From the NCBI RefSeq assembly GCF_017348835.2, contig NZ_CP071375.1: 64,000 bases of DNA. One strand, 5' to 3'. The DNA is from Escherichia coli. GTDB taxonomy: Bacteria > Pseudomonadota > Gammaproteobacteria > Enterobacterales > Enterobacteriaceae. The position numbers were made by a program, and so were the translations under genes. Within the stretch, counting starts at the first letter, position 1; the number at the start of each line of letters is the position of its first letter. The notes under the pieces were generated by a model. That model had not been told where the DNA came from, did no database searches, and was given only the letters and a program-made list of their open reading frames with translations. Shown piece by piece: positions 20,917 through 21,207 of this stretch.

Positions 20917-20923
20917 TACATGT

Positions 20924-20958
20924 TGTAGCAATCCCGTACTGATTATGAAGAATAGTCA
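20924..20958. terminator. Hairpin immediately downstream of gss
   Basis: Inverted repeat cccgtactgat...atcagtacggg; no clear U-tract, so terminator function is uncertain. Confidence 0.35.
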
Positions 20959-21207
20959 GTACGGGGATTAATCAAAATATTCAATATTTATATATTCCAA
21001 TATTTATTCATTTCATATGTGAATACATTAACCAGCAGAATGCCTGTGTTCTAATTATTTCTAAAGATTTTTAATGAATGCTTATTGTCTGATACACAAG
21101 AAATAACACTCTTTTTATCGTTAAAAAATGATATTTCACTTTGCCCACACCGTTAAAGTCACTGATAATGCGTCCGTTCGTAAATTCAAAATGGCGTAAT
21201 CTAATAT

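Follow-up and report, generated by a model that had tools for sequence, protein, structure and literature searches.

The 291-bp spacer between gss and pitB in Escherichia coli is an ordinary composite: a stem-loop that is most likely a gss 3′-end hairpin, AT-rich filler, and a promoter of the pitA type. We see about an even chance that this composite acts as a regulatory gap, in which the AT/TpA-rich, pitB-specific tract binds nucleoid proteins and damps a pitA-like promoter. The proposed mechanism would run as follows. A stable, evolutionarily maintained stem-loop would end or protect the gss transcript. Beyond it, ~150 bp of pitB-specific DNA of ~24% GC would precede an 85-bp promoter/leader presumably inherited from a pitA-type ancestor. 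The AT/TpA-rich tract, together with the AT-rich first 100 nt of pitB, would make a good substrate for proteins of the H-NS/StpA type, which would cover a ~400-bp patch and lower initiation at the pitA-like promoter, and a further regulator might bind the conserved segment at 21072-21122. An AT-rich gss-pitB spacer is in itself a known kind of feature at a well-studied locus, and both the weak expression of pitB and the attraction of H-NS to AT-rich promoter-upstream DNA are already established. The corrective outcomes are that the tract shows no measurable phasing or curvature and that the published pitB silent domain is different DNA.

Parts of the spacer and the shared pit promoter

The spacer was analysed within a 64-kb stretch of DNA (the window), using the RefSeq annotation of strain PE164, which is 100% identical over the query, as the gene map. 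The earlier note had placed a spacer of roughly 290 bp at 20917-21207, and profile matches and RefSeq show this to be exact. As shown in Table 1, gss and pitB lie on the same strand; the gss open reading frame encodes 620 amino acids, and its final 300 nt have already fallen to 44-46% GC in the composition profile. The K-12 counterpart of the spacer (NC_000913.3, 3,136,372-3,136,662) has the same length. Of 5426 complete E. coli genomes, 5336 contain the spacer, and its length there is almost always 291 bp; in four Escherichia lineages it measures 291-302 bp. Among the loci recovered, the gss-pitB arrangement is confined to Escherichia.

Table 1. Features of the gss-pitB region, in window coordinates.
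Feature	Position	Strand	Evidence or remark
gss (glutathionylspermidine synthetase/amidase) CDS	19057-20916	+	NCBIfam equivalog NF007801, 1280 bits; RefSeq; composition profile
gss-pitB spacer	20917-21207		291 bp; gap between gss end 20916 and pitB start 21208
gss 3′ stem-loop (most likely), 15-bp stem and 5-nt loop	20932-20966	+	starts 16 nt past the stop codon
Distal pitB-specific AT tract	20971-21071	unstranded	20971-21030 just 15% GC
Proximal pitB-specific segment, including AACACTCTTTTTATCG	21072-21122	unstranded	~-55 to -105 from the predicted start; kept in all pitB loci
85-bp pit promoter/leader block (A6 tract, -35, -10, short leader)	21123-21207	+	paralogous to the pitA upstream region
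-35 hexamer TTGCCC (predicted)	21141-21146	+	promoter scan, 9/12 matches, 17-bp spacer
-10 hexamer GATAAT (predicted)	21164-21169	+	promoter scan
Two-codon mini-ORF ATG-GCG-TAA (ATGGCGTAA) in leader	21191-21199	+	direct reading of the sequence
pitB CDS, 499 aa	21208-22707	+	NCBIfam NF033774 (PitA/PitB family), 929 bits; RefSeq
Truncated thymidylate-kinase-like fragment	22756-23007	-	
IS3-family element	23061-24274		
Two hypothetical genes downstream of pitB	one at 24446-26050		that one 38.5% GC
Tyrosine integrase	26859-28175		

Two observations concern the surroundings of the spacer. PitB is ~77-83% identical to the PitA of every sampled genus, Escherichia's own included, so a recent duplication of E. 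coli pitA is not its origin, nor does any sampled genus stand out as a donor. Downstream of pitB (22708-28500), the yghT and yghS genes of K-12 and the DNA that follows them are replaced by other sequence.

The stem-loop that follows gss is stable as RNA (dG -23 kcal/mol, z -7.1), and the K-12 allele forms a perfect stem (-25.9, z -8.6). When eight E. coli alleles and three other Escherichia species were aligned, the stem positions were paired in 96% of cells, compared with 27-47% for slid-partner controls. At two pairs both partners have changed in compensation (U-A to C-G and A-U to G-C), and all three one-sided changes yield G.U, which pairs solely in the RNA of the + strand. A U-tract was sought immediately after the stem and is absent, the next sequence being AUUAAUCAAAAUAUUC; the terminator scan passes over the stem-loop because there is no T-run. 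A canonical intrinsic terminator for gss was therefore rejected, and the structure is probably a 3′-end stabiliser or a non-canonical (weak or factor-assisted) terminator.

At the opposite end of the spacer, the promoter/leader block aligns locally with the region upstream of pitA with a score of 85, against a maximum of 29 for shuffled sequences. The -35, the 17-bp spacing and the -10 are identical at pitA and pitB and invariant in 39 aligned loci. In a collection of species-representative genomes, a 38-nt core pattern was matched exactly in 38 loci from eight genera. Thirty-five of these are yhiN-pitA loci (Escherichia, Salmonella, Citrobacter, Klebsiella, Raoultella, Superficieibacter, Intestinirhabdus and Enterobacter) and three are gss-pitB loci, from E. 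whittamii and two unnamed Escherichia species. The pitA block is essentially invariant over ~95 bp in the 35 loci, including flanks that lay outside the search pattern, and the pitB block is the least variable part of its region among E. coli alleles (pi 0.024). These alignments indicate purifying selection on the core promoter of pitB. Conservation extends into the leader, where the mini-ORF is invariant in all 39 aligned loci and the pitA leader is invariant as a whole; judged from the aligned sequences, the pit promoter/leader is conserved beyond what a promoter alone usually shows.

Two smaller features of the block were also recorded. The mini-ORF lies 9-13 nt before the pit start codon, without an obvious Shine-Dalgarno sequence. 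The -10 is flanked by short direct repeats (21147-21154 and 21170-21178) that differ between the paralogues: pitA has two copies of GCGCCGCG, pitB two of CCGTT. They may have arisen by chance or may form a bipartite recognition element for a protein.

The predicted pitB promoter is the sole + strand site in the consensus promoter scan and would start transcription at ~21176-21177. The scan returned two sites in the spacer against 2.3 expected, so spurious promoters are not overrepresented. Since the core is conserved and identical to that of constitutive pitA, a defective promoter cannot explain why pitB is weakly expressed. In genomic SELEX, the sigma-S RNA polymerase holoenzyme selects the K-12 pitB-gsp spacer with a value of 12.6 (cut-off 3.0); polymerase can therefore reach the promoter, at least when the DNA is naked. 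With the core promoter intact and conserved, the likeliest source of the weak expression of single-copy pitB in K-12 is the upstream DNA specific to pitB. The cause of pitB silence is thus to be sought in the pitB-specific 150 bp upstream, not in the core promoter.

Composition, phasing and turnover of the AT-rich tract

The spacer had been described beforehand as strikingly AT-rich, and this is borne out: its GC content is 0.296, compared with 0.515 for the whole window, and just 0.17% of 291-bp windows are as low. The minimum for windows of this size in the 64 kb (0.275) falls inside the spacer region. The spacer has the lowest GC content of the 26 annotated intergenic regions, whose mean is 0.445 (sd 0.072) and whose next lowest value is 0.346. 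The density of TpA steps is 0.114 against 0.044, placing the spacer in the top 0.1% of the window. The low-GC island runs from ~20900 to 21300 and takes in the first 100 nt of pitB, which have a GC content of 0.35. The whole spacer is 70% AT, and a 152-bp core (20971-21122) reaches 76% AT (GC 0.237). This is the composition described for H-NS-bound regions, namely high AT content over at least 100 bp with an abundance of TpA.

Phasing of the A/T tracts, which the earlier note had also claimed, did not hold up: AA/TT periodicity and modelled curvature are no higher than in composition-matched shuffles. The spacer contains thirteen AnTm tracts of at least 4 nt, irregularly spaced. AA/TT Fourier power at 10.5 bp has a z of 2.0, with periods of 7 and 14 bp scoring equally high, and the maximum of the 10-11.5 bp band was matched by 28% of dinucleotide-preserving shuffles. 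Curvature was modelled with two sets of wedge angles, Bolshoy-Trifonov and AA-wedge. One peak appears at ~21119, in the top 1% of the window, where the tracts of 21101-21136 lie 11.5, 12 and 8.5 bp apart. It was reached by 53% (Bolshoy-Trifonov) or 18% (AA-wedge) of shuffles, and the mean curvature of the spacer is slightly below the shuffle mean. With the Fourier analysis and both wedge models inside the shuffle range, intrinsically curved DNA with phased A-tracts was rejected; the phased look of the spacer is due to its composition.

These results bear on the idea that phased A-tracts bend the DNA upstream of the pitB promoter as a curved-DNA or UP element, stimulating transcription rather than silencing it. 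Such an element might be seen in the A6 tract at ~-48 to -53, which has an A7 counterpart at pitA, and in the tract cluster with its curvature peak. Against these stand the values obtained from composition-matched shuffles, the breaking up of the A6 (AAAAGA) in the three other Escherichia pitB loci, and a literature in which pitB expression is weak, not strong. We regard a stimulating bend as quite improbable.

Local alignment detected no homology between the AT tract and pitA upstream DNA beyond 21123. The upstream 200 bp have 26-27% GC at the three non-coli gss-pitB loci, compared with 38-47% at the 35 pitA loci. Over the nearest 100 bp, both kinds of locus are AT-rich (23-27% GC at pitB loci, 25-39% at pitA loci). 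Among E. coli alleles, the AT core has a pi of 0.047 and gss 3′ coding DNA a pi of 0.052, and the variable sites of the core are mostly distal. Between Escherichia species, the distal tract is 63-75% identical and the flanking genes 91-96%. Despite this turnover of sequence, the GC content of the AT core stays at 0.24-0.26 across four Escherichia lineages. That composition is held while the distal sequence diverges suggests a property set by composition rather than by sequence.

The same figures can be read without any role in silencing. Weakly constrained intergenic DNA may simply have drifted AT-ward under AT-biased mutation, on top of the AT-richness usual upstream of promoters and downstream of terminators; low PitB activity would then come from indirect Pho-dependent control, from translation or from properties of the protein. 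A distal tract that is about as variable as adjacent coding DNA within E. coli, and that differs between species much more than the genes on either side do, is what this would produce. It also fits the nucleoid-protein motifs, periodicity and curvature, all within shuffle range, and pitA promoters that are AT-rich just upstream as well. Regulation at the level of the PitB protein is mentioned, too, in secondary citations of Harris 2001. What passive drift accounts for less easily is that the spacer is the most extreme of the 26 intergenic regions, and that 24-26% GC and a length of 291-302 bp were held in four lineages while the sequence turned over. We take it as a serious rival, possible, though we lean against it. 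A passive origin would also leave room for an effect on pitB, because H-NS binds DNA of such composition whether or not it is "intended".

The proximal segment behaves differently from the distal tract. It is nearly invariant among the eight E. coli alleles, including the divergent one of isolate AF58, and 80-98% identical across Escherichia species, and may be a regulator site. One could then suppose that a dedicated transcription factor binding at 21072-21122 sets pitB expression, mediating for example the genetically seen Pho-linked repression, and that the rest of the tract is incidental. In favour are the persistence of the segment next to DNA that turns over just upstream, the presence within it of an imperfect dyad (GAAATAACACTCTTT / AAAAAATGATATTTC), and reports of repression in PHO-constitutive strains, even though PhoB does not bind. 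Weighing against are the weakness of the dyad (80%), which is itself AT-rich, and the scans for PhoB, CRP, Fur, Zur, ArcA, FNR, Lrp, IHF and Fis motifs, in which no match was better than in shuffles. We know of no regulator of pitB that acts through this segment, and consider a dedicated factor as the main determinant unlikely.

Other searches of the spacer were negative or gave sub-threshold matches. Of the consensus motifs scanned (H-NS, IHF, Fis, CRP, Lrp, Fur, Zur, ArcA, FNR and the sigma-S -10), none rises in the spacer above what its composition predicts. An Rfam scan found no sRNA or riboswitch in the spacer; its matches were sub-threshold and due to chance, one to a plant miRNA and one to rli38 (32 bits, gathering score 49). 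An imperfect 18-nt direct repeat, GAATGCCTGTGTTCTAAT (21038-21055) and GAATGCTTATTGTCTGAT (21076-21093), has 72% identity and a spacing of 38 bp; its second copy sits in the conserved proximal segment, and the repeat may be chance.

A proposed role of nucleoid proteins in the weak expression of pitB

The spacer had further been called the kind of sequence that nucleoid proteins bind. Composition and TpA density favour this; phasing and curvature do not. We return to the reading that we prefer, in which silencing of pitB by nucleoid proteins at the spacer is plausible and dampening by H-NS-type binding to the AT tract would most likely explain the weak expression of pitB.

In the published binding data consulted, the one positive hint concerns gss. 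In the ChAP-seq study of Higashi 2016 (S2 Table), the gss coding region is scored as overlapping an H-NS-bound region; pitB is absent from the table. The overlap occurs in at least one of three strains and is more than a short 3′ overlap, with the end of the gene unspecified. The 3′ side of gss is the likelier place for it, since the 5′ side is AT-poor. The same study found that H-NS-bound DNA evolves faster. The H-NS high-affinity motif (TCGATAAATT-like) was sought in the spacer, where the best matches have 2-3 mismatches and are equalled by 95-100% of dinucleotide shuffles.

A silent protein-occupancy domain, the "pitB" locus tsEPOD (Vora 2009; Bryant 2014), silences an inserted lac promoter. 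The primers used for its replacement, D76806 and D76807, map to K-12 3,133,505 and 3,135,303. The domain is therefore K-12 3,133,506-3,135,302, consisting of yghS-yghT and the 3′ third of pitB, and was rejected as evidence for the spacer.

The low activity of PitB is well documented in K-12. PitB is described as non-functional in wild-type or PHO-constitutive K-12, and a pitB deletion mutant is near wild type, with PitA carrying ~90-95% of Pi uptake; the expression of pitA and pitB is the most divergent among co-orthologues. Work of Harris and of Hoffer, both from 2001, is said to have found pitB repressed in PHO-constitutive backgrounds and activated by gene amplification. When the spacer was searched for a Pho box, the best match had 7 mismatches in 18 positions, no better than shuffles. 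PhoB ChIP-seq and RNA-seq showed no peak and no PhoB-dependent regulation at pitB (Fitzgerald 2023); in that RNA-seq, gss has ~5,000 normalised counts. A PhoB-regulated promoter at pitB was accordingly rejected, and, as PhoB neither binds nor regulates pitB and a Pho box is missing from the spacer, another mechanism is needed.

That pitB would be "poorly expressed or cryptic", as the earlier note put it, stands in its first part, on the K-12 literature. The word "cryptic" overstates the case and is too strong for a gene whose promoter is the best-conserved part of its region, has the same core as that of pitA and is bound by the sigma-S holoenzyme in vitro. The gene itself is intact in most E. 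coli genomes.

In some isolates, the AT-rich DNA of the spacer and of the start of pitB is a target of IS1, with two independent insertions. Strain T2 (L005, 3099-3155) carries an IS1 at ~21015/16, with a deletion onward to the integrase/tRNA-Phe region, and strain Z1323CEC0001 (L004, 854-1637) carries one at ~21253, inside codon 16 of pitB. In isolate AF58 (L006), pitB is frameshifted and the distal spacer is much more diverged. The IS1 insertions and the frameshift imply that pitB is dispensable in some lineages. No pitB-activating IS insertion was seen among the IS1 cases found in E. coli isolates.

Taken together, the points in favour of damping by H-NS-type proteins are the extreme AT and TpA content, a core promoter identical to that of pitA, the maintenance of composition, the ChAP-seq score of gss, the IS1 insertions and the low activity of PitB in K-12. 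Several observations count against it. The nearest 100 bp upstream of pitA are AT-rich as well (25-39% GC), yet pitA is well expressed; the AT island is just ~400 bp long; the H-NS motif does not rise above composition; and the sigma-S holoenzyme binds in vitro. Short H-NS regions go with weaker repression, according to Kahramanoglou 2011.

The two paralogues might be viewed as a natural paired experiment, in which one and the same core drives constitutive expression of pitA but leaves pitB nearly silent, the pitB module being an H-NS-dependent silencer that is relieved under some conditions. This extension is tentative and somewhat doubtful. If true, a fast-evolving AT tract conserved in composition but not in sequence, together with a conserved 50-bp element, would explain a Pho-linked repression that is not mediated by PhoB.

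Comparison with known systems

Like intrinsic (Rho-independent) terminators, the gss stem-loop is a stable structure placed closely after a stop codon and upheld by compensatory substitutions; unlike them, it does without the defining U-tract. The "pitB" tsEPOD shares the K-12 chromosomal neighbourhood of the spacer. It lies ~1 kb away, however, and most of its DNA is absent from this window, where an IS3-family element, a kinase-gene fragment and an integrase island are found instead.

Among H-NS-silenced promoters (bgl, proU and cases of xenogeneic silencing), several likenesses to pitB can be drawn. An AT/TpA-rich tract flanks a competent promoter; expression is weak in single copy and reportedly activated by amplification; and pitB is lineage-restricted (found in Escherichia alone among the loci recovered), with fast turnover and IS1 insertions. 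It differs from these systems in the shortness of its AT island (~400 bp), in a coding GC content that is normal at 51%, and in its IS insertions, since both IS1 cases destroy or delete pitB and an activating insertion was not seen.

A further comparison is with the pitA promoter/leader of Enterobacteriaceae. Beyond the A-tract, the upstream DNA is unrelated and much more AT-rich at pitB. The A-tract itself is A7 at pitA and A6 at pitB; there is a 3-nt difference between the A-tract and the -35 and a 1-nt difference in the leader, and the stretch just before the start codon is more AT-rich at pitB. Within the 85 bp, the two genes share the -35, the 17-bp spacing, the -10, an upstream A-tract and the mini-ORF ATGGCGTAA.
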